In this document: positions 3,733 to 58,111 of the stretch, one piece after another
Layout: each line of letters begins with the position of its first letter
Position numbering within the stretch: position 1 is the stretch's first letter
Source of the DNA: Pristiophorus japonicus
Lineage: Eukaryota
Length of the DNA: 64,000 bases
NCBI RefSeq assembly: GCF_044704955.1
Contig: NC_091996.1
Span: forward strand, 97,526,001-97,590,000
Direction of reading: 5' to 3'
The notes under the pieces: generated by a model
Database searches by the model: none
The model's input: the letters and a program-made list of their open reading frames with translations, nothing else
Told to the model about the DNA's origin: nothing
Program-made: the position numbers and the translations under genes

Positions 3733-5968
3733 CTCCCTTAGTATTGCCCTTCTGACAGTGCAGCACTCCCTCAGTACCGCCCCTCCGACAGTGCGGCACT
3801 CCCTCAGTACTGCCCCTCCGACAGTGCGGCACTCCCTCAGTACTGCCCCTCCGACAGTACGGCAGTCCTTCAGTACTGCCCCTCCGACAGAGCGGCAGTC
3901 CTTCAGTACTGCTCCTCCGATGGTGCAGCACTCCCTCAGTACTGCCCCTCCGACAGTGCGGCGCTCCCTCAATACTGCCCCTCCGACAGTGCGGCAATCC
4001 CTCAGTACTGCCCCTCCGACAGTGCGGCACTCCCTCAGTACTGCCCCTCCGACAGTGCAGGGCTCCTTCAGTACTGCCCCTCCGACAGTGCGGCACTCCC
4101 TCAGTACTGCCTCTCCGACAGTGCGGCGCTCCCTCAGTACAGCCCCTCTGACAGTGCAAGGCTCCCTCAGTACTGCCCCTCCGACAGTGTGACACTCCCT
4201 CAGTACTGCCCCTCCGACAGTGCAGGGCTCCCTCAGTACTGCCCCTCTGACAGTGCGGCACTCCCTCAGTACTGCCTCTCCGACAGTGCGGCGCTCCCTC
4301 AGTACTGCCCCTCCGACAGTGCGGCACTCCCTCAGTACTGCCCCTCCGACAGTGCGGCGCTCCCTCAGTACAGCCCCTCCGACAGTGCAAGGCTCCCTCA
4401 GTACTGCCCCTCCGACAGTGTGGCACTCCCTCAGTACTGCCCCTCCGACAGTGCAAGGCTCCCTCAGTACTGCCCCTCCGACAGTGTGGCACTCCCTCAG
4501 TACTGCCCCTCCGACAGTGCGGCACTCCCTTAGTACTGCCCCTCCGACAGTGCAAGGCTCCCTCAGTACTGCCTCTCCGACAGTGCGGCACTCCCTCAGT
4601 ACTGCCCCTCCGACAGTGCAGGGTTCCTTCAGTACTGCTGCTCCGACAGTGCGGCACTCCCTCAGTACTGCCTCTCCGACAGTGCGGCGCTCCCTCAGTA
4701 CAGCCCCTCTGACAGTGCAAGGCTCCCTCAGTACTGCCCCTCCGACAGTGTGACACTCCCTCAGTACTGCCCCTCCGACAGTGCAGGGCTCCCTCAGTAC
4801 TGCCCCTCTGACAGTGCGGCACTCCCTCAGTACTGCCTCTCCGACAGTGCGGCGCTCCCTCAGTACTGCCCCTCCGACAGTGCGGCACTCCCTCAGTACT
4901 GCCCCTCCGACAGTGCGGCGCTCCCTCAGTACAGTCCCTCCGACAGTGTGGCACTCCCTCAGTACTGCCCCTCCGACAGTGCAAGGCTCCCTCAGTACTG
5001 CCCCTCCGACAGTGTGGCACTCCCTCAGTACTGCCCCTCCGACAGTGCGGCACTCCCTCAGTACTGCCCCTCCGACAGTGCAAGGCTCCCTCAGTACTGC
5101 CCCTCCGACAGTGTGGCACTCCCTCAGTACTGCCCCTCCGACAGTGCGGCACTCCCTCAGTACTGCCCCTCCGACAGTGCAAGGCTCCCTCAGTACTGCC
5201 TCTCCGACAGTGCGGCGCTCCCTCAGTACTGCCCCTCCGACAGTGTGGCACTCCCTCAGTACTGCCCCTCCGACAGTGCAAGGCTCCCTCAGTACTGCCC
5301 CTCCGACAGTGTGGCACTCCCTCAGTACTGCCCCTCCGACAGTGCGGCGCTCCCTCAGTACTGCCCCTCCGACAGTGCGGCACTCCCTCAGTACTGCCCC
5401 TCCGACAGTGTGGCACTCCCTCAGTACTGCCCCTCCGACAGTGCGGCACTCCCTCAGTACTGCCCCTCCGACAGTGCGCGCTTCCTCGGCACTGTACTCC
5501 GACAGTGCATCGCTCCCTCAGTACTGCCCCTCCGACAGTGCGGCGCTCCCTCAGTACTGCCCCTCCGACACTGCGGCGCTCCCTCAGTACTGCCCCTCCG
5601 ACAGTGCGGCGCTCCCTCAGTACCGCCCCTCCGACAGTGCGGCGCTCCCTCAGTACTGCCCCTCCGACAGTGCGGCACTCCCTCAGTACTGCCCCTCCGA
5701 CAGTGCGGCACTTCCTCGGCACTGTACTCCGACAGTGCATCGCTCCCTCAGTACTGCCCCTCCGACAGTGCGGCGCTCCCTCAGTACTGCCCCTCCGACA
5801 GTGCATCGCTCCCTCAGTACTGCCCCTCCGACAGTGCGGTGCTCCCTCAGTACTGCCCCTCCGACAGTGCGGCGCTTCCTCAGTACTGCCCCTCCGACAG
5901 TGCGGCATTCCCTCAGCACTGCACTGGGAGTATCGGCCTGGATTATGCGCTGAGTGTGTAGAGTGGTG
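3733..5968 (-). repeat. 33-bp array (~66 units) followed by a partial SINE head
   Basis: Array 3733-5925 runs into gcactgggag..gcctggattatgcgct, the reverse complement of the SINE head-proximal sequence. Confidence 0.95.
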
Positions 5969-7289: not shown

Positions 7290-8535
7290 GTGTCAGCTGT
7301 GGCTCACCTGAGTCCGAAGGTCGTGGGTTCAAGCGCCCATTCTAGGGACTTGAGTATAAAAATCTAGGCTGACATTCCCAGTGCAGTACTGAGGGAGCGC
7401 CGCACTGTCGGAGGGGCAGTACTGAGGGAGTGCCGCACTGACGGCGGGGCAGTACTGAGGGAGCGCCGCACTGTCGGAGGGTCAGTACTGAGGGAGCACC
7501 GCACTGTCGGAGGGTCAGTACTGAGGGAGCACCGCACTGTCGGAGGGTCAGTACTGAGGGAGCACCGCACTGTCGGAGGGGCAGTACTGAGGGAGCACCG
7601 CACTGTCGGAGGAGCAGTACTGAGGGAGTGCCGCACTGTCGGAGGGTCAGTACTGAGGGAGCACCGCACTGTCGGAGGAGCAGTACTGAGGGAGCACCGC
7701 ACTGTCGGAGGGGCAGTACTGAGGGAGCACCGCACTGTCGGAGGGGCAGTACTGAGGGAGCGCCGCACTGTCGGAGGGGCAGTACTGAGGGAGCGCCGCA
7801 CTGTCGGAGGGGCAGCACTGAGGGAGTGCTGCACTGTCGGAGGGGTGATACTGAGGGAGCACCGTACTGTTGGAGGGGCGGTACTGAGGGAGTGCTGCAC
7901 TGTCGGAGGGACGGTACTGAGGGAGTGCTGCACTGTCGGAGGGGCAGTAATGAGGGAGGGCCGCGCAGTCGGAGGGGCAGTACTGAGGGAGTGGTTGGAG
8001 GGGCAGTACTGAGGGAGCACCGCACTGTCGGAGGAGCGGTACTGAGGGAGCGCCGCACTGTCGGAGGGGCAGTACTGAGGGAGTGGTCGGAGGGGCAGTA
8101 CTGAGGGAGTGGTCGGAGGGGCAGTACTGAGGGAGTGCCGCACTGTCGGAGGGGCAGTACTGAGGGAGTGGTCGGAGGGGCAGTACTGAGGGAGCGCCGC
8201 ACTGTCGGAGGTGCCGACTTTCAGACAGGACGTTAAACCAGGGCGCTGTCTGCTCTCTCGGGCAAATGTAAAAGATCCCACGGATACTCTTGGAAGGTGA
8301 GCAGGGGAGTTCTCCCCGGTGTCCTGGGGCCGATATTTACCCCTCAATCAACAAAACAAAAACAGCTGATCTGGTCATTATCACACCGCTGTGTGTGGGA
8401 GCTTGCTGTGCACAAATTGGCTGCCGCGTTTCCCACATTATGACAGTGACTACACCCCAAAAAGTACTTCATTGGCTGTAAAGCGCTTTGGGATGTCATG
8501 AGGGCGTGAACGGCGCTATCTAAATGCAAGTCTTT
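7290..8535 (+). mobile_element. tRNA-headed Deu-domain SINE (SacSINE1/AmnSINE1-like) with internal 33-bp array (~25 units, 7384-8210)
   Basis: Head with B-box-like GGTTCAAG, then array, then body (GACGTTAAACC..AAAGATCCCA..GGTGTCCTGG) and L2-like tail AAAGCGCTTTGGGA..GGCGCTAT. Confidence 0.85.
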
Positions 8536-9114
8536 CTGAAGTGCTTTGTGACGACCTGAGGACGTGAAAGGCTCTATTGTAATGCAATGTCTTTTTTTTC
8601 TAAAATGCTTTGAGACGTCAAGGACATGAAAGGCGCTATAGAAATGCAATTTCTTTGTATCTAAAAGCACTTTGCAACAAAATGAAGGCGTGAAAGGCGC
8701 TATAGAAATGAAATTTGTTTCTTTCCAAAGCGCTTTGGGCCGGTCCCGAGGGTGTGAAAGGCGCTGTAGGAATGCGAGGCCTTCCTTTGTAAATCCTTGG
8801 CGGTGAGAGCCAGATGGGTGAGCTAGGAAAAAGATGTCAAGTGATGGAGGCCCAGGGAGGCTGGGAACAAAATGGCGGCGGGCGGGAGGGGAGGGGAGGG
8901 GAGGCCGCCCGGGGCCCGGCAATGGCGGGGGAACGAGGCCGGCAATCACCTCAGCAAAGGGCGGCCTCCCCCTGGGGGACACAATAAATCCCCTCGGGGA
9001 GACGGTCGGCTCACCGGGCCGCCGCCATCACATCGGAAAATCAAAGTCTCTCGACAACAACAGGCCGTGAGTGAGACACAAAGCCTGTCACACCAGTCAA
9101 AATAACACAATGCT

Positions 9115-9804: not shown

Positions 9805-10036
9805 ACACGGGGAGGGGGGGTCCCGTCCGTCCCACGGGGAGGGGAGGGGGTCCCGTCCCCGTCCCCGTCCCCGGTCCGTCCGTCCGTCCCACGGGGAGGG
9901 GAGGGGGTCCCGTCCCCGTCCCCGGTCCGTCCGTCCGTCCCACGGGGAGGGGAGGGGGTCCCGTCCCCGTCCCCGTCCCCGTCCCCGGTCCGTCCGTCCG
10001 TCCCATGGGGAGGGGAGGGCGTCCCGTCCCGTCCCG
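9805..10036. repeat. GC-rich minisatellite (GTCC/GTCCCC-based, 4-5 units) at the start of paralogue B intron 1
   Basis: Repeated ggggaggggagggggtcccgtccccgtccccggtccgtccgtccgtcccac. Confidence 0.9.
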
Positions 10037-10220: not shown

Positions 10221-11040
10221 GCTCTGCCCCTGGCCCTGCCCTGTGTGTGTCTGGGACCTGGCTCCCCCTCTCTTCCCTTCCTTGGAGAAGACCCCCAGCC
10301 CCTGCCCTGCCCCTGCCCTGTGTGTGTGTGTGTGTCTGGGACCTGGCTCCCCCTCTCTTCCCTTCCTTGGAGAAGACCCCCAGCCCCTGCCCTGCCCCTG
10401 CCCTGTGTGTGTGTGTGTGTCTGGGACCTGGCTCCCCCTCTCTTCCCTTCCTTGGAGAAGACCTCCAGCCCCTGCCCCTGCCCTGTGTGTGTGTGTGTGT
10501 GTGTCTGGGACCTGGCTCCCCCTCTCTTCCCTTCCTTGGAGAAGACCCCCAGCCCCTGCCCCTGCCCTGTGTGTGTGTGTGTGTCTGGGACCTGGCTCCC
10601 CCTCTCTTCCCTTCCTTGGAGAAGACCTCCAGCCCCTGCCCCTGCCCTGTGTGTGTGTGTCTGGGATCTGGCTCCCCCTCTCTTCCCTTCCTTGGAGAAG
10701 ACCTCCAGCCCCTGCCCTGTGTGTGTGTGTGTGTCTGGGACCTGGCTCCCCCTCTCTTCCCTTCCTTGGAGAAGACCTCCAGCCCCTGCCCTGTGTGTGT
10801 GTGTGTGTCTGGGACCTGGCTCCCCCTCTCTTCCCTTCCTTGGAGAAGACCTCCAGCCCCTGCCCCTGCCCTGTGTGTGTGTGTGTGTCTGGGACCTGGC
10901 TCCCCCTCTCTTCCCTTCCTTGGAGAAGACCTCCAGCCCCTGCCCCTGCCCCTGCCCTGTGTGTGTGTGTGTGTGTCTGGGACCTGGCTCCCCCTCTCTT
11001 CCCTTCCTTGGAGAAGACCTCCAGCCCCTGGCCCTGCCCC
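10221..11040. repeat. Compound VNTR, 10 units of 74-88 bp with embedded (GT)n and (GCCCCT)n
   Basis: Unit starts ctggga(c/t)ctggctcccc at 10251, 10336, 10421, 10505, 10585, 10661, 10735, 10809, 10889, 10977. Confidence 0.95.
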
Positions 11041-11144: not shown

Positions 11145-11600
11145 TAAAGAAAGACTGTCATTTTTACAGTGTCTTTCACGACCACCCAAAGCAGCTTACA
11201 GCCAACGAAGCACTTTTTTTTTGAAGTGTCGTCACTGCCCTGATGTAGGAAACGCGGCAGCCAGTTTTGCGCACAGCAAGCTCCCACAAACAGCAATGTG
11301 ATAATGAACGGATAATCTGTTTCAGTGATGTTGATTGAGGGATAAATATTGGCCCCAGGACACCCGGTACAACCCCGCCCGCTCTTTCTTCGAAATAGTG
11401 GCCATGGGATCTTTTCTGTCAAGCTGAGGGAGCGGACAGGGCCTCGGTTTTTAACGTCTCACCTCCAGCGATGCAGCACTCCCTCAGTACGGCACTGGAG
11501 TGTCAGTGTCGATTTATGTGCTCAAGTCTCTGGAGTGGGACTTGAACCCACAACCTTCTGTCTCGGAGGGGAGGGGGCTACCCACTGAGCCACAGCTGAT
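11145..11600 (-). mobile_element. Deu-SINE copy with a single (unexpanded) 33-bp-like unit
   Basis: Reverse complement of head (ctgtggctcagtgggtagc..gggttcaagtccc), body and tail. Confidence 0.85.
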
Positions 11601-13821: not shown

Positions 13822-14380
13822 TAGGCAGCCCCCCAGACTCGAGGATGACTTGCTCCCACACTGCAATGAGTTCTCAGGTGACTGATGAGACCAATGCGGG
13901 ATCTACAGACCCTGTCACAGGTGGGGCAGACGCTGTTTGAAGGGACGGATGGGTGGGGTGTTTGATTTGTTGTACGCTCCTTCCGCTATTTCTGGTTGGC
14001 TACCGCGTGCTCCCGCGAAGAGATTCGAAGTGTTCGCTGCTTTTCCGGATGCTCCTCCTTCACTTTGAGCGGTGTTGGGCCGGGGATTCCGTGTTGGGCC
14101 GGGGATTCCGTGTTGGGCCGGGGATTCCGTGTTGGGCCGGGGATTCCGTGTTGGGCCGGGGATTCCGTGTTGGGCCGGGGATTCCGTGTTGGGCCGGGGA
14201 TTCCGTGTTGGGCCGGGGATTCCGTGTTGGGCCGGGGATTCCCCCAAGAGTCGGTGGGGATGTTACATTTTTTCAAGGCGGTTTTGAGGGTGTCCTTGAA
14301 GTGTTTTCTCTTGCCCTCCTGGGGCTCACCTACCGTGACATAGCTCGGGGTAGAGCACTTGTTTCGGGAGTCAAGCCCAT
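13822..14380 (-). mobile_element. RTE LINE 3' fragment containing a 19-bp minisatellite (GTGTTGGGCCGGGGATTCC x9, 14072-14242)
   Basis: KKCNIPTDSW motif matches RTE fragment 44586-45155 (KCNIPIDTWESLA); near-perfect 19-bp tandem units. Confidence 0.8.
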
Positions 14381-19169: not shown

Positions 19170-20335
19170 AAAGAAAGACTTGCATTGATATAGCGACTTT
19201 CACAACCACCGGACGCATTACAGCCAATGATGTACATTTTGTTTTGGAGTGTAGTCACTGTTTTAATGTGGGAAACGCAGCAGCCAATTTGCGCACAGCA
19301 AGCTCCCACAAACAGCAATGTGATGGTGAGCAGGTAATCTGTTCTAGCGATGTTGATTGAGGGATAACTGTTGGCCCCAGGGAGAACTCCCCCTTCTTCG
19401 AAATAGTGGCCATAGGATCTTTTACATTTAACGCCTCATCCGAAAGATGGCACCTCCGACAGTGCGACGCTCCCTCAGCATTGCCCCTCCGACAGTGCGA
19501 CACTCCCTCAGTACTGCCCCTCCGACAGTGCGGCACTCCCTCAGCACTGCTCCTCAAACAGTGCGGCGCTCCCTCAGCACTGCTCCTCCAACAGTGCGGC
19601 ACTCCCTCAGTACTGCCCCTCCGACAGTGCGGCGCTCCCTCAGTACTGCCCCTCCGAAAGTGCGGCGCTCCCTCAGTACTGCCCCTCCGACAGTGCGGCG
19701 CTCCCTCAGTACTGCCCCTCCGACAGTACGGCCCTCCCTCAGTACTGCCCCTCCGACAGTGCGGCGCTCCCTCAGTACTGCCCCTCCGAAAGTGCGGCGC
19801 TCCCTCAGTACTGCCCCTCCGACAGTGCGGCGCTCCCTCAGTACTTCCCCTCCGACAGTACGGCCCTCCCTCAGTACTGCCCCTCCGACAGTGCGGCGCT
19901 CCCTCAGTACTGCCCCTCCGACAGTGCGGCGCTCCCTCAGTACTGCCCCTCCGACAGTACGGCCCTCCCTCAGTACTGCCCCTCCGACAGTGCGGCGCTC
20001 CCTCAGTACTGCCCCTCCGAAAGTGCGGCGCTCCCTCAGTACTGCCCCTCCGACAGTGTGGCGCTCCCTCAGTACTGCCCCTCCGACAGTGCGGCCCTCC
20101 CTCAGTACTGCCCCTCCGACAGTGCGGCGCTCCCTCAGTACTGCCCGTCCGACAGTGCGGCGCTCCCTCAGTACTGCCCCTCCGACAGTGCGGCCCTCCC
20201 TCAGTACTGCCCCTCCGACAGTGCAGCACTCCCTCAGTACTGTACTGGAGTGTCAATGTAGATTTTTGTGCCTGGTGTGGAACTTGAACCCACAATCATT
20301 TGACTCGGAGGCGAGGGTGCTACCCACTGAACCAC
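19170..20335 (-). mobile_element. Deu-SINE with internal 33-bp array (~24 units, 19452-20243)
   Basis: Tail, body, array and tRNA-like head in order; private variants cgaaagt and tacggccct. Confidence 0.9.
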
Positions 20336-29844: not shown

Positions 29845-30260
29845 GAAAGAAAGCATTGCATTTATAGAGCGCTTTTCATGAACTCCAAACATCCCACAAG
29901 TTTTACAATCAATGAATACATTTGAAGTGTTGTAATGTGGGACACGCGGCAGACAATCTGCGCACAGCAAGCTCCCACAAACAGCAATGTGATAATGATC
30001 GGATCATCTGTTGTAGTGATGTTAATTGAGAGATAAATATTGGCCGGGACACCAGGGAGAACTCCCCTGCTCTTCTTCGAAATGGTGGCCATGGGATCTT
30101 TTCCACCACTGCAGAGGGCAGACGGGGCCTCGGTTTAACATCTCATCCAAACGACGGCACCTCTGACAGTGCAGCACTCCCTTGGTACCTGGGAATATCC
30201 TGAGTATCAACCTGGATGATGTGCTCAAATCCCCAGAGTGGGAATTAGAATCCATATCCT
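29845..30260 (-). mobile_element. Deu-SINE copy with a single unit
   Basis: Tail, body, one ctctgacagtgcagcactccct unit, degraded head. Confidence 0.8.
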
Positions 30261-30922
30261 GGTGACTAAGGCTAGTGATTAGATATTAAGGGGACCGGAT
30301 AGGGTAGCTAGAGAGAAACGATTCCCGCTGGTTGGGGAGTCTGGGACTAGGGGCACAGTCTTAAAAATTAGAGCCAGACCTTTCAGGAGTGAAATTAGGA
30401 AACACTTCTACACACAAAGGGCGGTAGAAGTTTGGAACTCTCTTCCGCAAACGGCAGTTGATGCTGGATCAATTGTTAATTTTAAATCTGAGATTGATAG
30501 TATATTTAAGGTGGAGATAGACAGATTTTTGAGTAATAAGGGAGTGAAGGGTTATGGGGAGCGGGCGGGGAAGTGGAGCTGAGTCCATGATCAGATCGGC
30601 CATGATCTTATTGAATGGCGGAGCAGGCTCGAGGGGCCAAATAGCCGACTCCTGCTCCTATTTCTTATGTTCTAATGTTCTTATGGTAGCTTTCTGTTAA
30701 CCAAAGGTATTAAGCGATATGGGCCAAAGGCGGGTAGATGGAGTTAGGTGACAGATCAGCCATGATCCCACTGAATGTGGGAACAGGCTCGAGGGGCTGA
30801 ATGGCCTCCTCTTGTTCCGGTGTTCCTATGAGTGACACGGTGATGAACACAACCAATGGCAGAGGACGAGTTCATCATTCTCCACTTGGCAAAGAAAAGA
30901 TGAATATATTTGAGACTCTTAC

Positions 30923-36534: not shown

Positions 36535-38312
36535 GCTTCAGCTGGGTAGCACTCTCACTTCTGAGTCAGAAGGTCGTGGGTTCAAGTCCCACTCTCGGAA
36601 CTTGAGCGCATAAATCTAGGCTGACACTCCCAGTGCAGTACTGAGGGAGCCCCGCACTGTCGGAGGGGCAGTACTGAGGGAGCGCCGCACTGTCGGAGGG
36701 GCAGTACTGAGGGAGCCCCGCACTGTCGGAGGGGCAGTACTGAGGGAGCGCCGCACTGTCGGAGGGGCAGTACTGAGGGAGCGCCGCACTGTCGGAGGGG
36801 CAGTACTGAGGGAGCGCCGCACTGTCGGAGGGGCAGTACTGAGGGAGCGCCGCACTGTCGGAGGGGCAGTACTGAGGGAGCGCCGCACTGTCGGAGGGGC
36901 AGTACTGAGGGAGCCCCGCACTGTCGGAGGGGCAGTACTGAGGGAGCGCCGCACTGTCGGAGGGGCAGTACTGAGGGAGCCCCGCACTGTCGGAGGGGCA
37001 GTACTGAGGGAGCGCCGCACTGTCGGAGGGGCAGTACTGAGGGAGCGCCGCACTGTCGGAGGGGCAGTACTGAGGGAGCGCCGCACTGTCGGAGGGGCAG
37101 TACTGAGGGAGCGCCGCACTGTCGGAGGGGCAGTACTGAGGGAGCGCCGCACTGTCGGAGGGGCAGTACTGAGGGAGCGCCGCACTGTCGGAGGGGCAGT
37201 ACTGAGGGAGCGCCGCACTGTCGGAGGGGCAGTACTGAGGGAGCGCCGCACTGTCGGAGGGGCAGTACTGAGGGAGCGCCGCACTGTCGGAGGGGCAGTA
37301 CTGAGGGAGCCCCGCACTGTCGGAGGGGCAGTACTGAGGGAGCCCCGCACTGTCGGAGGGGCAGTACTGAGGGAGCGCCGCACTGTCGGAGGGGCAGTAC
37401 TGAGGGAGCGCCGCACTGTCGGAGGGGCAGTACTGAGGGAGCCCCGCACTGTCGGAGGGGCAGTACTGAGGGAGCGCCGCACTGTCGGAGGGGCAGTACT
37501 GAGGGAGCCCCGCACTGTCGGAGGGGCAGTACTGAGGGAGCGCCGCACTGTCGGAGGGGAAGTACTGAGGGAGCGCCGCACTGTCGGAGGGGCAGTACTG
37601 AGGGAGCGCCGCACTGTCGGAGGGGCAGTACTGAGGGAGCGCCGCACTGTCGGAGGGGCAGTACTGAGGGAGCGCCGCACTGTCGGAGGGGCAGTACTGA
37701 GGGAGCGCCGCACTGTCGGAGGGGCAGTACTGAGGGAGCGCCGCACTGTCGGAGGGGCAGTACTGAGGGAGCGCCGCACTGTCGGAGGGGCAGTACTGAG
37801 GGAGCGCCGCACTGTCGGAGGGGCAGTACTGAGGGAGCGCCGCACTGTCGGAGGGGCAGTACTGAGGGAGCGCCGCACTGTCGGAGGGGCAGTACTGAGG
37901 GAGTGCCGCACTGTCGGAGGGGCAGTACTGAGGGAGCGCCGCACTGTTGGAGGGGTGGTACTGAGGGAGTGCCGCACTGTCAGAGGTGCTGTCTTTCGGA
38001 CGAGATGTTAAACTGAGGCCCCGTCTGCTCTCTCAGGTGGATGTAAAGGATCCCATGGCACTATTTCAAAGAGCAGCAGGGGAGTTTCCCCTGGTGTCCT
38101 GGGGCCAATATTTATCCCTCAATCAGCATAATTAAAACAGATGATCTGGTCATTATCACATTGCTGTGTGTGGGAGCTTGCTGTGCGCAAATTGGCTGCC
38201 GCGTTTCCCAAATTACAACAGTGACTACACTCCAAAAGTACTTCATTGGCTGTAAAGCGCTTTGAGACATCCGGTTATCATGAAAGGCGCTATATAAAGG
38301 CAAGTCTTTTAT
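36535..38312 (+). mobile_element. Complete Deu-SINE with highly homogeneous internal 33-bp array (~41 units, 36636-37985)
   Basis: Head with B box GGTTCAAGTCC (~36579), array CAGTACTGAGGGAGCGCCGCACTGTCGGAGGGG, body from ggtgctgtctttcgga, tail ending caagtctttt. Confidence 0.93.
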
Positions 38313-45364: not shown

Positions 45365-45946
45365 TAAAGACTTGCATTTATATAGTGCCTTTCACCACCA
45401 CTGGACATCTCAAAGCGCTTTACAGCCAATGAAATACTTTTAGAGTGTAGTCACTGTTGTAATGTGGGAAACGCGGCAACCAATTTGTGCACAGCAAGCT
45501 CCCACACACAGCAATATGATAATGACCAGATCATCTGTTTTAGTGATGTTGATTGAGGAATAAATATTTGCCAGGACACCAGGGAGAACTCCCCTGCTCT
45601 TCTTCGAAATAGTGCCGTGGGATCTTTTACATCCACCTGAGAGAGCAGACGGCCCCTCCGACAGTGCGGGGCTCCCTCAGTACTGCCCCTCCGACAGTGC
45701 GGCGCTCCCTCCGACAGTGTGGCACTCCCTCAGTACCGCCCCTCTGACAGTGTGGCGCTCCCTCAGTACTGCCCCTCTGACAGTGCGGCACTCCCTCAGT
45801 ACTGCCCCTCCGACAGTGCGGCGCTCCCTCAGTAGTGTACTGGAGTGTCAGCCTAGATTCTTGTGCTCAAGTCCCTGAATTGGGACTTGAACCCACAACC
45901 TTCTGACTCAGAGGCGAGGGTGTTGCCCACTGAGCCACAGCTGACA
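45365..45946 (-). mobile_element. Deu-SINE with short array (~6 units, 45652-45840)
   Basis: Complete head, short array, body and tail. Confidence 0.9.
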
Positions 45947-47745: not shown

Positions 47746-48595
47746 GTCAGCTGTGGCCCAGTGGGCCAGGTCAGTGATTGGAGCGTGGGCAGGTACAGCA
47801 GGAGTGGCGAGAGACTGTGGAGGGATGTGACCGGGGCCCGGGAGAGGCGAGGGCCCAGGGGCAGCACGGGACCAGCCCACACTGCGATATGTGAGCTCAC
47901 TGGGTCCGTGCAGCAGAGCTGGTCTCCAGTCGTCCTGGTTAACCCTTGCCACTGGACCAAGACCTCGCTCTGTCAAGCCCCGTGTGGTGGCTGGTGTACA
48001 ACGGTCACCCCATGTTAAACAATCCACCCACAGGCATCTTCCACCCTTCAGGATGTAGTTCAGGATCCGGAATATTAGGTCCTTCATCCCTTTTTGGCGT
48101 GGAAGCAAGTCATCCTCGCTTCAAGGGACTGCCTCTGATGAGTGGGTAGCACTTTCTCTCACCTTTGAGTCAGAAGTTGTGGGTTCAACTCCCATTCCAG
48201 GGTCTTGAGCACAAAAACAAATCCAGGCTGACACTAACACAGTGCTGAGGGAGCGCTGCACTGTCGGAGGTGCCATCTTTCGGATGAGACGTTAAACCGA
48301 GGCCCCGTCTGCTCTCAAGTGGGCGTAAAAGATCCCATGGCACTATTTCAAAGAGCAGGGGAGTTATCCCCGGTGTCCTGGGGCCAATATTTATCCCTCA
48401 ATCAACATAACAAAATAAAACAGATTATCCAGCCAAGATCACATGGCTGTTTGTGGGAGCTTGCTGTGTGCAAATTGGCTGCTGCGTTTCCCACATTACA
48501 ACAGTGACCACACTCCAAAAAGTACTTCATTGGCTGTAAAGCGCTTTGGGACGTCTGGTGGTCGTGAAAGGCACTATATAAATCCAAGTCTTTTT
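47746..48595 (+). mobile_element. Single-unit Deu-SINE whose A-box is split by RTE-derived element copy 3 (47766-48140)
   Basis: gtcagctgtggccc-agtggg [insert] agtggg-tagcact; 6-bp TSD agtggg. Confidence 0.85.
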
Positions 48596-49034: not shown

Positions 49035-50830
49035 GGTCAGCACCCAGCGCCCACACAGGGTCAGCACTCAGCACCCACACAGGGTCAGCACCCAGCACCC
49101 ACACCGGTCAGCACCCAGCACCCACACACAGGGTCAGCACCCAGCACCCACACACAGGGTCAGCACCCAGCACCCACACACAGGGTCAGCACCCAGCACC
49201 CACACACAGGGTCAGCACCCAGCACCCATACAGGGTCAGCACTCAGCACCCACACACAGGGTCAGCACTCAGCACCCACACACAGGGTCAGCACCCAGCA
49301 CCCACACAGGGTCAGCACTCAGCACCCACACACAGGGTCAGCACCCAGCACCCACACACAGGGTCAGCACCCAGCACCCACACACAGGGTCAGCACCCAG
49401 CACCCACACAGGGTCAGCACTCAGCACCCACACACAGGGTCAGCACTCAGCACCCACACACAGGGTCAGCACCCAGCGTCCACACACAGGGTCAGCACCC
49501 AGCACCCACACACAGGGTCAGCACCCAGCACCCACACACAGGGTCAGCACTCAGCACCCACACACAGGGTCAGCACTCAGCACCCACACACAGGGTCAGC
49601 ACTCAGCACCCACACACAGGGTCAGCACTCAGCACCCACACACAGGGTCAGCACCCAACACCCACACACCGGGTCAGCACCCACACAGTGTCAGCACCCA
49701 CACACCGGGTCAGCACCCATCACCCACACCGGGTCAGCACCCAGCACCCACACACCGGGTCAGCACTCACACAGTGTCAGCACCCACACACCGGGTCAGC
49801 ACCCAACACCCACACACCGGGTCAGCACCCACACAGTGTCAGCACCCACACACCGGGTCAGCACCCAGCACCCACACACAGGGTCAGCACTCAGCACCCA
49901 CACACAGGGTCAGCACTCAGCACCCACACACAGGGTCAGCACCCAGCACCCACACAGGGTCAGCACCCAGCACCCATACACAGGGTCAGCACCCAGCACC
50001 CACACACCGGGTCAGCACCCACACAGTGTCAGCACCCACACACCGGGTCAGCACCCAGCACCCACACACAGGGTCAGCACCCAGCACCCACACAGTGTCA
50101 GCACCCACACACCGGGTCAGCACCCACACAGTGTCAGCACCCACACACCGGGTCAGCACCCAGCACCCACACACAGGGTCAGCACCCAGCACCCACACAG
50201 TGTCAGCACCCACACACCGGGTCAGCACCCAGCACCCACACCGGGTCAGCACCCAGCACCCACACACAGGGTCAGCACCCAGCACCCACACACAGGGTCA
50301 GCACCCAGCACCCACACACAGGGTCAGCACCCAGCACCCACACACAGGGTCAGCACCCAGCACCCACACACCAGGTCAGCACCCACACAGTATCAGCACC
50401 CACACACCGGGTCAGCACCCAGCACCCACACACCGGGTCAGCACCCACACAGGGTCAGCACCCAGCACCCACACAGGGTCAGCACCCAGCACCCACACAC
50501 AGGGTCAGCACCCAGCACCCACACACAGGGTCAGCACCCAGCACCCACACACAGGGTCAGCACCCAGCACCCACACACAGGGTCAGCACTCACACAGTGT
50601 CAGTACCCACACACTGGGTCAGCACCCACACACCGGGTCAGCACCCAGCACCCACACAGGGTCAGCACCCAGCACCCACACACAGGGTCAGCACTCAGCA
50701 CCCACACACAGGGTCAGCACCCAGCACCCACACACAGGGTCAGCACCCAGCACCCACACAGTGTCAGCACCCAGCACCCACACAGTGTCAGCACCCAGCA
50801 CCCACACAGGGTCAGCACCGAGGAGTCAGC
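49035..50830. repeat. CA-rich minisatellite, ~26-bp unit GGGTCAGCACCCAGCACCCACACACA (~70 units)
   Basis: Direct tandem periodicity with shorter 24/19/17-bp variants. Confidence 0.95.
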
Positions 50831-51317: not shown

Positions 51318-52660
51318 ACAGTATGAGGGAGTGCCGCACTGTCAGAGGGGCAGTACTGAGGGAGCGCAGCACTGTCGGAGGGGCAGTACTGAGGGAGTGC
51401 CGCACTGTCGGAGGGGCAGTGCTGAGGGAGCCCCGCACTGTCGGAGGGGCAGTGCTGAAGGAGCCCCGCACTGTCGGAGGGGCAGTACTGAGGGAGCGCC
51501 GCACTGTCGGAGGGGCAGTACTGAGGGACCCCGCACTGTTGGAGGGGCAGTACTGAGGGAGTGCCGCACTGTCGGAGGGGCAGTACTGAGGGAGTGCCGC
51601 ACTGTCGGAGGGGCAGTGCTGAGGGAGCGCCGCACTGTCGGAGGGGCAGTGCTGAGGGACCCCGCACTGTTGGAGGGGCAGTACTGAGGGAGTGCCGCAC
51701 TGTCGGAGGGGCAGTACTGAGGGAGCGCCGCACTGTCGGAGGGGCAGTGCTGAGGGAGCGCCGCACTGTCGGAGGGGCAGTGCTGAGGGAGCGCCGCACT
51801 GTCGGAGGGGCAGTACTGAGGGAGTGCCGCACTGTCAGAGGGGCAGTACTGAGGGAGCGCCGCACTGTCGGAGGGGCAGTACTGAGGGAGCGCCGCACTA
51901 TCGGAGGGGCAGTACTGAGGGAGCGCCGCACTGTCGGAGGGGCAGTACTGAGGGAGCGCCGCACTGTCGGAGGGGCAGTGCTGAAGGAGCCCCGCACTGT
52001 CGGAGGGGCAGTACTAAAGGAGCCCCGCACTGTCGGAGGGGCAGTACTGAGGGAGCGCCGCACTGTCGGAGGGGCAGTACTGAGGGAGCGCCGCACTGTC
52101 GGAGGGGCAGTACTGAGGGAGCGCCGCACTGTCGGAGGGGCAGTACTGAGGGAGCGCCGCACTGTCGGAGGGGCAGTACTGAGGGAGTGCCGCACTGTCG
52201 GAGGGGCAGTACTGAGGGAGCGCCGCACTGTCGGAGGGGCAGTACTGAGGGAGCGCCGCACTGTCGGAGGGGCAGTACTGAGGGAGCGCCGCACTGTCGG
52301 AGGGGCAGTACTGAGAGGCGCCGCACTGTTGGAGGTGCCATCTATTGGATGAGACATTAAACCGAGGCCCCGTCTGCTCTCTCAAGTGAATGATAAAGAT
52401 CCCATGGTACTATTTCGAAAGAGAGCAGGGGAGTTATGCTCGGTGTCCTGGCCAATATTTATCCCTCAATCAAAATAACAAAAAAAAAGATTATCTGGTC
52501 ATTATCACATTGCTGTTTGTGGGAGCTTGCTGTGAACAAGTTGGCTGCCGCGTTTCCCACATTACAACAGTGCCTACACTCCAAAAAGTATTTCACTGGC
52601 TGTAAAGTGCTTTGAGATGTCTGGTGGTTGTGAAAGGCACTATATAAATGCAAGTCTTTC
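51318..52660 (+). mobile_element. Headless Deu-SINE with 33-bp array (~31 units, 51320-52335)
   Basis: Array runs into ggtgccatctattggatgagac body and full tail. Confidence 0.9.
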
Positions 52661-53583
52661 ATAGAAACATAGAAAATAGGTGCAGGAGTAGGCCATTCGG
52701 CCCTTCGAGCCTGCACCGCCATTCAATGAGTTCATGACTGAACATGCAACTTCAGTACCACATTCCTGCTTTCTCGCCATACCCCTTGATCCCCCTAGTA
52801 GTAAGGACTTCATCTAACTCCTTTTTGAATATATTTAGTGAATTGGCCTCAACAACTTTCTGTGGTAGAGAATTCCACAGGTTCACCACTCTCTGGGTGA
52901 AGAAGTTTCTCCTCATCTCGGTCCTAAATGGCTTACCCCTTACCCTTAAACTGTGACCCCTGGTTCTGGACTTCCCCAACATTGGGAACATTCTTCCTGC
53001 ATCTAACCTGTCTGAACCCGTCAGAATTTTAAACGTTTCTATGAGGTCCCCTCTCATTCTTCTGAACTCCAGTAAATACAAGCCTAGTTGATCCAGTCTT
53101 TCTTGATATGTCAGTCCCACCATCCCGGGAATCAGTCTGGTGAACCTTCGCTGCACTCCCTCAATAGCAAGAATGTCCTTCCTCAAGCTAGGAGACCAAA
53201 ACTGTACACAATACTCCAGGTGTGGCCTCACCAAGGCCCTGTACAACTGTAGCAACACCTCCCTGCCCCTGTACTCAAATCCCCTCGCTATGAAGGCCAA
53301 CATGCCATTTGCTTTTTTAACCGCCTGCTGTACCTGCATGCCAACCTTCAATGACTGATGTACCATGACACCCAGGTCTCGTTGCACCTCCCCTTTTCCT
53401 AATGTCACCATTGAGATAATAGTCTGTCTCTCTGTTTCCACCAAAGTGGATAACCTCACATTTATCCACATTATACTTCATCTGCCATGCATTTGCCCAC
53501 TCACCTAACCTATCCAAGTCACTCTGCAGCCTCATAGCATCCTCCTCGCAGCTCACACTGCCACCCAGCTCACACTGCCACCC
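52660..53583 (-). mobile_element. CR1 3' fragment, same young subfamily as 14815-18587
   Basis: Nearly identical ORF2 C-terminus and catagaaa tail; short duplication at the 5' junction. Confidence 0.9.
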
Positions 53584-56364: not shown

Positions 56365-56531
56365 TAACTCCCTCAGTACTGCCCCTCCGACAGTGCGGGG
56401 CTCCCTCAGTACTGCCCCTCCGACAGTGCGGCACTCCCTCAGTACTGCCCCTCCGACAGTGCGGCACTCCCTCAGTACTGCCCCTCCGACAGTGCGGCGC
56501 TCCCTCAGTACTGCCCCTCCGACAGTGCGGC
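56365..56531 (-). repeat. Free-standing 33-bp array (5 units) 55 nt downstream of the MBLAC1 stop
   Basis: Same unit, with no SINE head or body adjacent. Confidence 0.9.
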
Positions 56532-56585
56532 AGTCGCAGTCAAAGATAAAAGCGGCGGGGTATAAAGACGCAGGAATCAGTCGCT

Positions 56586-57242
56586 TCACAGAACAGGCTG
56601 GTACTCCTTTATTACTCTGAAGGGTGGCCCATGCCCAGGAACAATCACGTCAGCCAAGGCCTGCACCTTCTCTCTGTGCTGCGCCTGGAGCTGGGGGTCC
56701 TCGCTCAGTTGCTGCCAGCTGCCGTCATCGCCCTCTCGTTCAAACAGGTCCCCGCACACCACCACCGTGCCCTGCTCCGTGCCCCGCACCAGGACGCTGA
56801 CGTCACTGCCGCAGTGGCCGGGGGTGGCGAAGACCTCGAGGTGCTCGTCGATGGTGAACGGCAGGCCGGCGCGGAAGTCATGGCTCAGGTAGATGTCCCC
56901 CCTGCAGATGTCGTAGGACACGATGAAGGTGGCGTCGGGGAACAGGTTGAGGTTGCCCACGTGGTCGGAGTGGCCGTGGGTGCAGACCACGAAGGAGACG
57001 TCCTTGGGCTCGAGGCCATGTCTCGCCAGGCTCTGCAGTATCACCTCCCTGTCCCAAGGGTTCCCGGTGTCCACCATCACCACCCGCGGACCTTTAACCA
57101 GGGTGATGGAGCCATCGGCTCTGGTGTTGCCGTCTTGGCCCGTGTAGGCGTAGCCCTCTTTGATGACAAAAACCGAGTAAGGGTCGCCCAATATGGCGGG
57201 TGCGGCCACTGGCTGTGTCCGAATTTTTAAAGCAACACTCAT
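56586..57242 (-). CDS. MBLAC1: Metallo-beta-lactamase domain-containing protein 1 (218 aa, intronless CDS)
   Basis: accATG at 57242; RADGSITLV, VDTG, THGHSDHVGNL (HxHxDH), TPGH, GDLFE, VPGHG motifs; high GC3; adjacent to TAF6 as in human 7q22.1. Confidence 0.92.
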   Translation of the reverse strand: MSVALKIRTQPVAAPAILGDPYSVFVIKEGYAYTGQDGNTRADGSITLVKGPRVVMVDTGNPWDREVILQSLARHGLEPKDVSFVVCTHGHSDHVGNLNLFPDATFIVSYDICRGDIYLSHDFRAGLPFTIDEHLEVFATPGHCGSDVSVLVRGTEQGTVVVCGDLFEREGDDGSWQQLSEDPQLQAQHREKVQALADVIVPGHGPPFRVIKEYQPVL

Positions 57243-57911
57243 GGTCACACGGCGACGCTGGATAACCGAGAGGAAACTTCAAACGCAACCCAACGGATGT
57301 CAACAGATGTTCTTATCCTGCTTCAAGACAAAAAGAAAAGGCATTGAAAACCAAATAAAGCGGCTGCACAAAGCTCGAGACATTCCTGCTTAAATACAAT
57401 GAGTCTGTATTTGTGTGGCTAGTGGCTGTGGTCAGTGGTCAGCACTCTCTCTCGCCTGGGTCAGAAACACGGAAAATAGGTGCAGGAGTCGGCCATTCGG
57501 CCCTTCGAGCCTGCACCGCCATTCAATAAGATCATGGCTGAACATTCCCTCAGTATCCCTTTCCTGCTTTCAGGCTGGTTGTGGGTTCAAGTCCCACTCC
57601 AGGCCGACACTCCCAGTGCAGTGCTGATGTCCCACAGCAAGCAGGACAGTGACCAAGGGTTAGTGACTGGGCCGTTTCCCACCCCCTCACCATCACCCCA
57701 AGTGTTGCAGAGACATGTCTGTTCCTCCCGCTAATAGGAAGACTCGCATTGATACAGTGCCTTCCAGAGCAGACGGGGCCTCGGTTTAACCTCTTATCCA
57801 AACAGCACTGCTAACTGAGCTGGAGGGGAGCCCTGGTACACACAGGTTTAACCAGGATTCTATTTGCTTTGTACACACAGCATTAACAAAGGTAATACAT
57901 TTCTCTCTCCC

Positions 57912-58111
57912 NNNNNNNNNNNNNNNNNNNNNNNNNNNNNNNNNNNNNNNNNNNNNNNNNNNNNNNNNNNNNNNNNNNNNNNNNNNNNNNNNNNNNNNNN
58001 NNNNNNNNNNNNNNNNNNNNNNNNNNNNNNNNNNNNNNNNNNNNNNNNNNNNNNNNNNNNNNNNNNNNNNNNNNNNNNNNNNNNNNNNNNNNNNNNNNNN
58101 NNNNNNNNNNN
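57912..58111. other. Assembly gap (200 N placeholder)
   Basis: Run of exactly 200 N flanked by CT-rich low-complexity sequence. Confidence 0.99.

Follow-up and report, generated by a model that had tools for sequence, protein, structure and literature searches.

Tandem arrays of a 33-bp unit inside a tRNA-derived SINE cluster at chromosome ends of Pristiophorus japonicus and may have spread by ectopic gene conversion

In most copies of a tRNA-derived SINE of Pristiophorus japonicus a 33-bp unit occurs once and at the same site, but in the copy described here it is repeated 41 times. How did one and the same SINE come to carry a single unit at some loci and a long array at others? The initial annotation had proposed a dispersed SINE-satellite hybrid that spreads by retrotransposition and then expands or homogenises in place. 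The window (the whole stretch of DNA analysed, 64,000 nucleotides) is part of a 99.8-Mb scaffold of the 5.92-Gb genome, at 2.2 Mb from the scaffold end. The focal element (36535-38312, window coordinates) consists of the following parts:

36535-36634, + strand: tRNA-like SINE head, three-C variant, with an intact B box (36579-36589) and a damaged A box
36635-37986, + strand: array of 41 units of 33 bp (TRF: 41.0 units, period 33, 98% matches)
37987-38312, + strand: body of the SINE with its 3' tail, matching the family consensus computed here at 92%

The focal array is composed of 29 units of type one, 8 units of type two and 4 single variants on the 3' side, and every inner junction is G. Its 1,352 bp contain 81 G-runs and 111 CpG, with two G-runs and 2-3 CpG per unit. 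When the Pol III box consensus was used for recognition, both the A box and the B box were visible in the computed SINE consensus (461 bp); scans with ARAGORN and Rfam gave no match. Pol III boxes in the consensus head, high copy number and a simple 3' end identify the element as a tRNA-derived SINE. It had been noted before that the focal copy has no internal TTTT, and indeed the earliest one is at 38307, but the Pol III read-through suggested on this ground appears doubtful because the A box is damaged, although the B box is intact. Five of the six frames of the array unit (36635-37986) are open, which creates long ORFs of 11-residue repeats that could yield false gene models. A coding role of these frames was rejected, as they gave only low-score Atlas leads and three weak unnamed matches among 7,987 candidates.

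The other arrays and the one-unit copies of the window are:

7303-8535, + strand: SINE with 25-26 units (array 7383-8211), some units with a 26-bp deletion
19174-20331, - strand: SINE with 24 units (array 19453-20242)
45366-45933, - strand: SINE with 5.6 units, the last junction also being G
51319-52662, + strand: headless copy with 31 units and full body
1-1331, - strand: headless array of 40.5 units (locus L017), reaching slightly beyond the window edge into a part-deleted body
3733-5951, - strand: about 66.5 units (array 3733-5922), preserving the final ~30 bp of the head but no body, with internal higher-order blocks
56367-56532, - strand: 5-unit array with neither SINE flank, starting 54 bp downstream of the stop of a metallo-beta-lactamase-fold ORF
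11150-11588, - strand: one-unit copy, degenerate
29850-30270, - strand: one-unit copy with a degenerate 5' half-unit
48143-48594, + strand: one-unit copy

Period 33 was found by TRF in all arrays of the window, and the eight arrays sum to 7,860 bp, in agreement with the earlier figure of roughly 7.8 kb. The unit counts given in the initial annotation were also correct: one in the copies placed at 11145, 29845 (both degenerate) and 48141, 5.6 at 45365, 24 at 19170, 25-26 at 7290, 31 at 51318 and 41 at 36535, with 40.5, 66.5 and 5 in the remaining arrays. The expansion is, as described there, at a fixed site at the head/body boundary, and the variant cggggc (CCCCG), described as shared between arrays, was read by eye in five of the eight. 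That the arrays lie within the same SINE holds for most of them: head, body or both were present in 48 of 56 non-anchor arrays, and both SINE ends in 28, so it is not the case that most arrays lack SINE flanks. However, head, body or both are missing in four of the eight window arrays, those at 51318 and 1-1331 being headless, that at 3733-5922 bodyless with ~30 bp of head, and that at 56367-56532 flankless. The flankless array is likely to be inside the 3' UTR of an intronless ORF of ~218 aa (56586-57242, - strand; Pfam Lactamase_B, E 3e-19), presumably MBLAC1-like.

Some further repeats were observed in the window. The SINE tail of the copy at 7290 is itself repeated about four times (8481-8722, period near 62-64 bp), and GC-rich tandem repeats unrelated to the 33-bp unit, with periods of 26/52, 80, 19 and 51-63, are present at 49035-50819, 10242-11039, 14072-14242 and 9823-10035. 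A 200-N gap (57912-58111) lies beside a broken SINE head and body fragment (57400-57802).

The units of one-unit copies and of arrays can be told apart by four bases. In the main one-unit allele, position 6 is G and positions 16, 19 and 33 are T; at position 6, exact matches genome-wide numbered 5,361 for G and 813 for A (6,174 together), and it should be borne in mind that the computed consensus and the one-unit anchors were conditioned on this minor A allele. Inner array units have A at position 6 in 306 of 347 cases, mostly C at both 16 and 19, and G at 33, the changes relative to the one-unit copies being 6 G>A, 16 T>C, 19 T>C and 33 T>G. A statement that all array changes are GC-ward was dropped, the fourth change being G>A. 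The palindrome CAGTACTG, previously ascribed to the units in general, is found in the array unit; among one-unit copies it belongs to the minor allele only, whereas the main allele has G there. Position 6 is G in 9 of 29 first units versus 41 of 347 inner units, and outer half-units retain one-unit alleles.

Exact junctions between units numbered 189,508 with G and 2,224 with T genome-wide, and in the sampled arrays 1,227 of 1,266 junctions were G. The G junction was also present in 33 of the 34 two-unit copies (dimers) that were matched in the genome. Because the G junction dominates both arrays and dimers, whereas slippage of a one-unit copy would give T, the arrays have a common ancestry or exchange sequence. 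Contigs from four of four organisms examined contained unit-G-unit continuations, thus the G-junction array form is not private to this assembly. When the one-unit copy was used as query in four organisms, the SINE was present and no clear array joint was found.

The arrays have a strongly uneven chromosomal distribution. Of the placed array starts, 36 of 37 were within 12 Mb of a scaffold end, compared with 25 of 99 one-unit copies (p=2e-15, full lists). This 12-Mb end zone is 15% of the placed DNA, scaffold ends stand in for telomeres, and the test covers placed scaffolds, thus leaving out the unplaced contigs that hold 13 of 50 array matches and 1 of 100 one-unit matches. On scaffolds longer than 60 Mb, 23 of 24 array starts and 21 of 94 one-unit copies were within 10 Mb of an end. 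Between 20 and 535 Mb of scaffold C1 there were, among the matches listed, 0 of 35 array starts versus 42 of 47 one-unit matches, and, again among those listed, 1 of 33 matches of a second array pattern. Neighbours within 10 kb were 32 arrays versus 13 one-unit copies for array anchors, 1 versus 12 for distal one-unit anchors and 0 versus 12 for interior anchors. Arrays do occur in interior places (C1 218-222 Mb, C3 228-236 Mb, C6, C9, C20 at 40 Mb and C21), and four interior arrays had 3.6-5.2 differences per unit compared with a median of 1.8 in 84 distal arrays. Interior patches of C1 (218-234 and 314-337 Mb) and C3 (200-247 Mb) carry the three-C head variant typical of the ends, together with some decayed arrays; the patches on these two scaffolds are possibly former chromosome ends left by old fusions. 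Shark chromosome ends have been described, in the portions of these papers available to us, as rich in GC and tandem repeats and as having higher substitution rates, attributed to recombination (PMC10620051, PMC13100897).

From these sequence comparisons we favour, with a probability of about 0.55, the view that one founding duplication was spread by ectopic gene conversion into SINE copies resident in distal DNA of high recombination and that the arrays then grew in place. The process would have started from a one-unit SINE with a founding duplication that carried the four changes; the 33-bp piece of such a SINE lies between short similar words and can fold to a hairpin. Repair of distal breaks templated by other SINE copies would shuffle alleles with a GC bias, and the same conversion would bring the array allele into distal one-unit copies. 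Unequal exchange and conversion would then lengthen or shorten each array, some arrays would shed their flanks and become large blocks, and arrays in interior patches would cease turnover and subsequently decay. Host function is not needed in the conversion reading.

Base composition bears on the conversion step. W>S differences amounted to 7.5% in distal arrays, 7.1% in distal one-unit copies and 5.2% in interior copies, and S>W differences to 6.9%, 6.6% and 10.8%, respectively. Because distal copies gained G/C, lost less of G/C and have unlinked alleles (see below), we infer that conversion among them would be ectopic and GC-biased. One of the four array changes, G>A, is counter to such a bias, and the presence of arrays in some interior patches is counter to the conversion reading. 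The SINE may be read as a dispersed element in concerted evolution that depends on chromosome position.

The explanation nearest to the initial annotation, a master SINE with at least two units that was retrotransposed in the manner of SVA, with copies that landed or persisted chiefly in GC-rich distal DNA and then grew in place, is in our opinion rather unlikely. Hominoid SVA elements have a GC-rich VNTR between the fixed ends of a non-autonomous retroposon; all copies carry the VNTR, are dispersed and form subfamilies. Here, unlike in SVA, most copies are one-unit copies and the array copies lack a subfamily signal, no dispersed array subfamily with linked diagnostic alleles having been found. 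A single origin would account for the common G junction and for the order of position-6 alleles in dimers (G/A in 11, A/G in none), the one-unit copies, too, show an approximately twofold enrichment near the ends (23 of 99 in 12.6% of the DNA), and an internal TTTT is lacking in 12 of 22 full array copies. On the other hand, a master SINE predicts unexpanded dimers in low-recombination interiors, whereas the 34 dimers in the whole genome were distal in 26 of 33 cases and followed no single fixed allele pattern.

Nor do array copies look younger. Body divergence from the family consensus was 7.3% in 63 distal arrays, 7.3% in 47 distal one-unit copies and 7.7% in 22 interior one-unit copies, and the heads of array copies were slightly more, not less, diverged (10.6% versus 8.9%, p=0.036). 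After allowing for ~430 tests, no site in head or body separated arrays from distal one-unit copies, and arrays were found on both head variants (47 three-C, 14 two-C), against the linked head/body haplotype expected of a master copy. The three-C variant was carried by 47 of the 62 distal arrays and by 23 of the 35 distal one-unit copies, but by none of 20 interior copies, and on C1-C3 it occurred only at the ends and in a few patches. Among 147 distal copies, linkage at p<0.01 was found for only 2 of 105 site pairs, each with its two sites 3-10 bp from one another; because the alleles are unlinked, master-copy amplification alone does not explain the common distal alleles. The SINE tree was star-like (2 of 96 branches starred), with 33 changes of the array label against a shuffled mean of 33.0, a comparison of little power, and interior and distal copies were likewise unclustered. 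An old subfamily signal would be erased by conversion itself. The proposed spread of a dispersed hybrid by retrotransposition is not supported, given the largely distal arrays, the missing subfamily signal and the age of the copies. In distal copies, whether they carried an array or not, common non-CpG alleles of head and body were unlinked and shifted towards GC.

The excess of headless arrays counts against the conversion reading and for a master SINE: 14 of 42 body-bearing arrays were headless, compared with 7 of 60 one-unit copies (p=0.012), among which headless ones are under-detected. This is what 5' truncation inside array-bearing RNA would give, and some retrotransposition of such RNA is possible. 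The excess may also come from fragility, because arrays lose the body more often too (14 of 56 arrays versus 7 of 67 one-unit copies). Headless arrays were no shorter (14.5 versus 14.3 units). The 74 tail-only matches in the sampled loci had no common upstream LINE end, and no partner LINE was found among them. Four small fragments (L037), duplicate copies (L034), a look-alike repeat (L144), tile-edge arrays and the tiles of giant blocks were left out of the counts.

We also consider it unlikely that each array had an origin of its own, through slippage or unequal exchange of a hairpin-prone unit wherever recombination is high, with alleles swept later by array-to-array conversion or with the G junction built into the duplication step. 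The 33-bp piece does have short similar flanking words and two similar halves, and the distal confinement and the polyphyly of arrays would fit this explanation equally well. Several G-junction dimers consist of two one-unit-type halves: where such a dimer opens with a one-unit allele, the second unit has the same allele in 14 of 25 cases, whereas array donors predict 12%. This is counter to the conversion reading and leaves room for a duplication route that recurs or for dimer-to-monomer donors. The sole T-junction dimer consists of identical units, the outcome expected of plain slippage, and one array (L119) has mostly T junctions. Yet plain slippage should produce T, which was seen in 1 of 34 dimers, and independent events should vary in period and register, whereas period 33 was found throughout. 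A hairpin as driver is no more than a lead: the consensus one-unit piece folds as a 12-pair stem, but real folded copies were not more stable than shuffles (z -1.5 to +0.8). Ectopic conversion would still be required.

Selection could retain the arrays, for example as candidate binding sites that would determine crossovers in distal DNA or the chromatin of subtelomeres. The strong distal restriction, the G-junction form in contigs of all four organisms and the G-runs and CpG of each unit would agree with this, but the decay of CpG sites runs in both directions, as it does in neutral methylated DNA, and adjoining distal segments are without arrays; we hold a selected role to be very improbable. 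That a short repeat was inflated by the assembly is hardly credible, since, although N gaps occur in or near some blocks and array lengths are known from the assembly alone, the order of variants and the higher-order blocks are particular to each array, and independent runs of the four organisms contain head-unit-G-unit junctions.

Expansion or homogenisation in place, which the initial annotation had also proposed, is supported: arrays change in length and become homogenised where they are. At L034 (213-6503) a ~1.3-kb segment with one SINE is present in 4-5 tandem copies that differ in unit number; near-identical segment copies (98.3-99.2%) carry 13.5, 8.5 and 19 units, so unit number changes in place. 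The median length of 40 anchored arrays was 15.5 units, and there was a slight polarity, the outer 3' unit having 2.5 differences versus 1.5 at the 5' end. Three loci at 0.93, 1.35 and 2.03 Mb of C1 (L177, L178 and L179) are likely subtelomeric segmental duplicates; the scores of their heads and flanks are near-identical, and their arrays have 39, 24.5 and 28.5 units. Two loci (L188 and L144) contain a different tandem repeat that partially matches half of the 33-bp unit.

At the other end of the scale, C4 contains at 2.840-3.065 Mb a block whose assembled length is at least 224 kb (~6,800 units), in 23 contiguous tiles with one break of ~1.3 kb and one N gap. Within 110 kb of it, 2,761 of 2,815 junctions were G, and higher-order repeats were evident from recurring distances of ~46, 71 and 271 units; a long head-to-tail block with higher-order repeats is a satellite in the classical sense. 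In this block (L190-L199, L161-L172, L121) a 32-bp variant is frequent and inverted array-body pieces are at the right end. A second large block, 14 kb long, is at 3.03-3.05 Mb of C3 (L174, L175). Array DNA totals at least 6.3 Mb from exact junctions and ~13 Mb by a rough correction. The number of arrays was roughly estimated as ~15,000 (95% range 7,000-38,000), on the basis that the anchor pattern was matched in 5 of 56 arrays; an estimate of 28,000 was dropped, giant blocks inflating the count. One genome thus holds the series from one unit through dimers and short arrays to a block of at least 224 kb.

In a wider form, which we put forward tentatively, a selfish minisatellite allele would home between dispersed SINEs by ectopic GC-biased conversion, only at recombination-rich ends. 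Some 15,000 resident SINEs would thereby have become VNTRs, and satellites longer than 200 kb would have been seeded, leaving every stage of satellite birth in one genome, with decayed interior arrays marking former chromosome ends.

Among systems described before, the closest are the squamate sSat1-3 repeats, tandem repeats from the inner part of a tRNA-SINE that, according to the text available to us, are subtelomeric and homogeneous between loci (Vassetzky et al. 2023, PMC10702118). In both cases the tandem unit is part of a SINE, arrays range from few to hundreds of units, a SINE remnant is found at the array end, and the location is subtelomeric. Arrays with at least four inner units and a remnant at one or both ends define sSat, and here the median is 15.5 units with 48 of 56 arrays flanked. 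The 33-bp array is a SINE-derived satellite that acts like sSat, but its unit is 33 bp as opposed to about 70-290 nt from Squam1-3, so it is not one of the sSat families described in the available portion of PMC10702118. There, unit number varies at orthologous loci, here between near-identical tandem segment copies; arrays with both SINE ends, half of those here (28 of 56), are a minor variant in the sSat text available, and the largest block here, at least 224 kb (~6,800 units), compares with up to about 1,000 units (PMC10702118). The host here is a cartilaginous fish, a group absent from the sSat study as far as its accessible text goes, and allele-level evidence on array spread goes beyond that work (PMC10702118).

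The SINE of this window, which we take to resemble SacSINE1 in sequence, is similar in layout (461 bp computed here, with a putative LINE-type tail) to the SacSINE1/Deu-SINE elements of sharks, reported in the available text to have a tRNA head, a conserved body and a LINE-type tail in ~460 bp, up to 463 bp in the whale shark (Luchetti et al. 2017, PMC5499810; PMC3747384). Word searches of the accessible part of PMC5499810 gave zero occurrences of 'tandem' and of 'minisatellite', and no internal array is described there. Mouse (GGCAGA)n VNTRs from B1 SINEs and Alu-derived minisatellites have, in the text available, grown in place from short internal direct repeats (PMC9659126, PMC6947457). Their units are 6-8 bp or locus-specific, whereas here one 33-bp type with shared derived alleles occupies thousands of loci at chromosome ends. 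Human subtelomeric minisatellites, whose instability is driven by conversion, share with the present arrays GC-rich G-skewed units, distal clustering, mosaics of variant units and slight polarity. Human loci are mostly unrelated mutually; here there is one family inside one SINE. Subtelomeric clustering of human GC-rich minisatellites is stated in the accessible text of PMC6947457. In the open literature (subscription journals, Dfam, Repbase and supplements being outside the scope) no report of the 33-bp array in sharks was found, and word searches of the available text of the dogfish genome paper and of the Squalomix preprint revealed no such array.

The birth of satellites from mobile elements and their spread between chromosomes are usually inferred from end products, whereas here the stages coexist. 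The four marker bases separate resident from donor sequence, therefore the route of spread is directly testable at orthologous loci. The arrays extend SINE-derived satellites beyond squamates, a point that, in the text available, the sSat authors had left open (PMC10702118), and they are a concrete component of the shark chromosome ends described, in the parts available, as GC-rich and rich in tandem repeats (PMC10620051, PMC13100897). They could serve as a read-out of recombination, as markers of old fusions and as VNTR markers. If the conversion reading is true, this SINE family would show satellite DNA being born from a mobile element.
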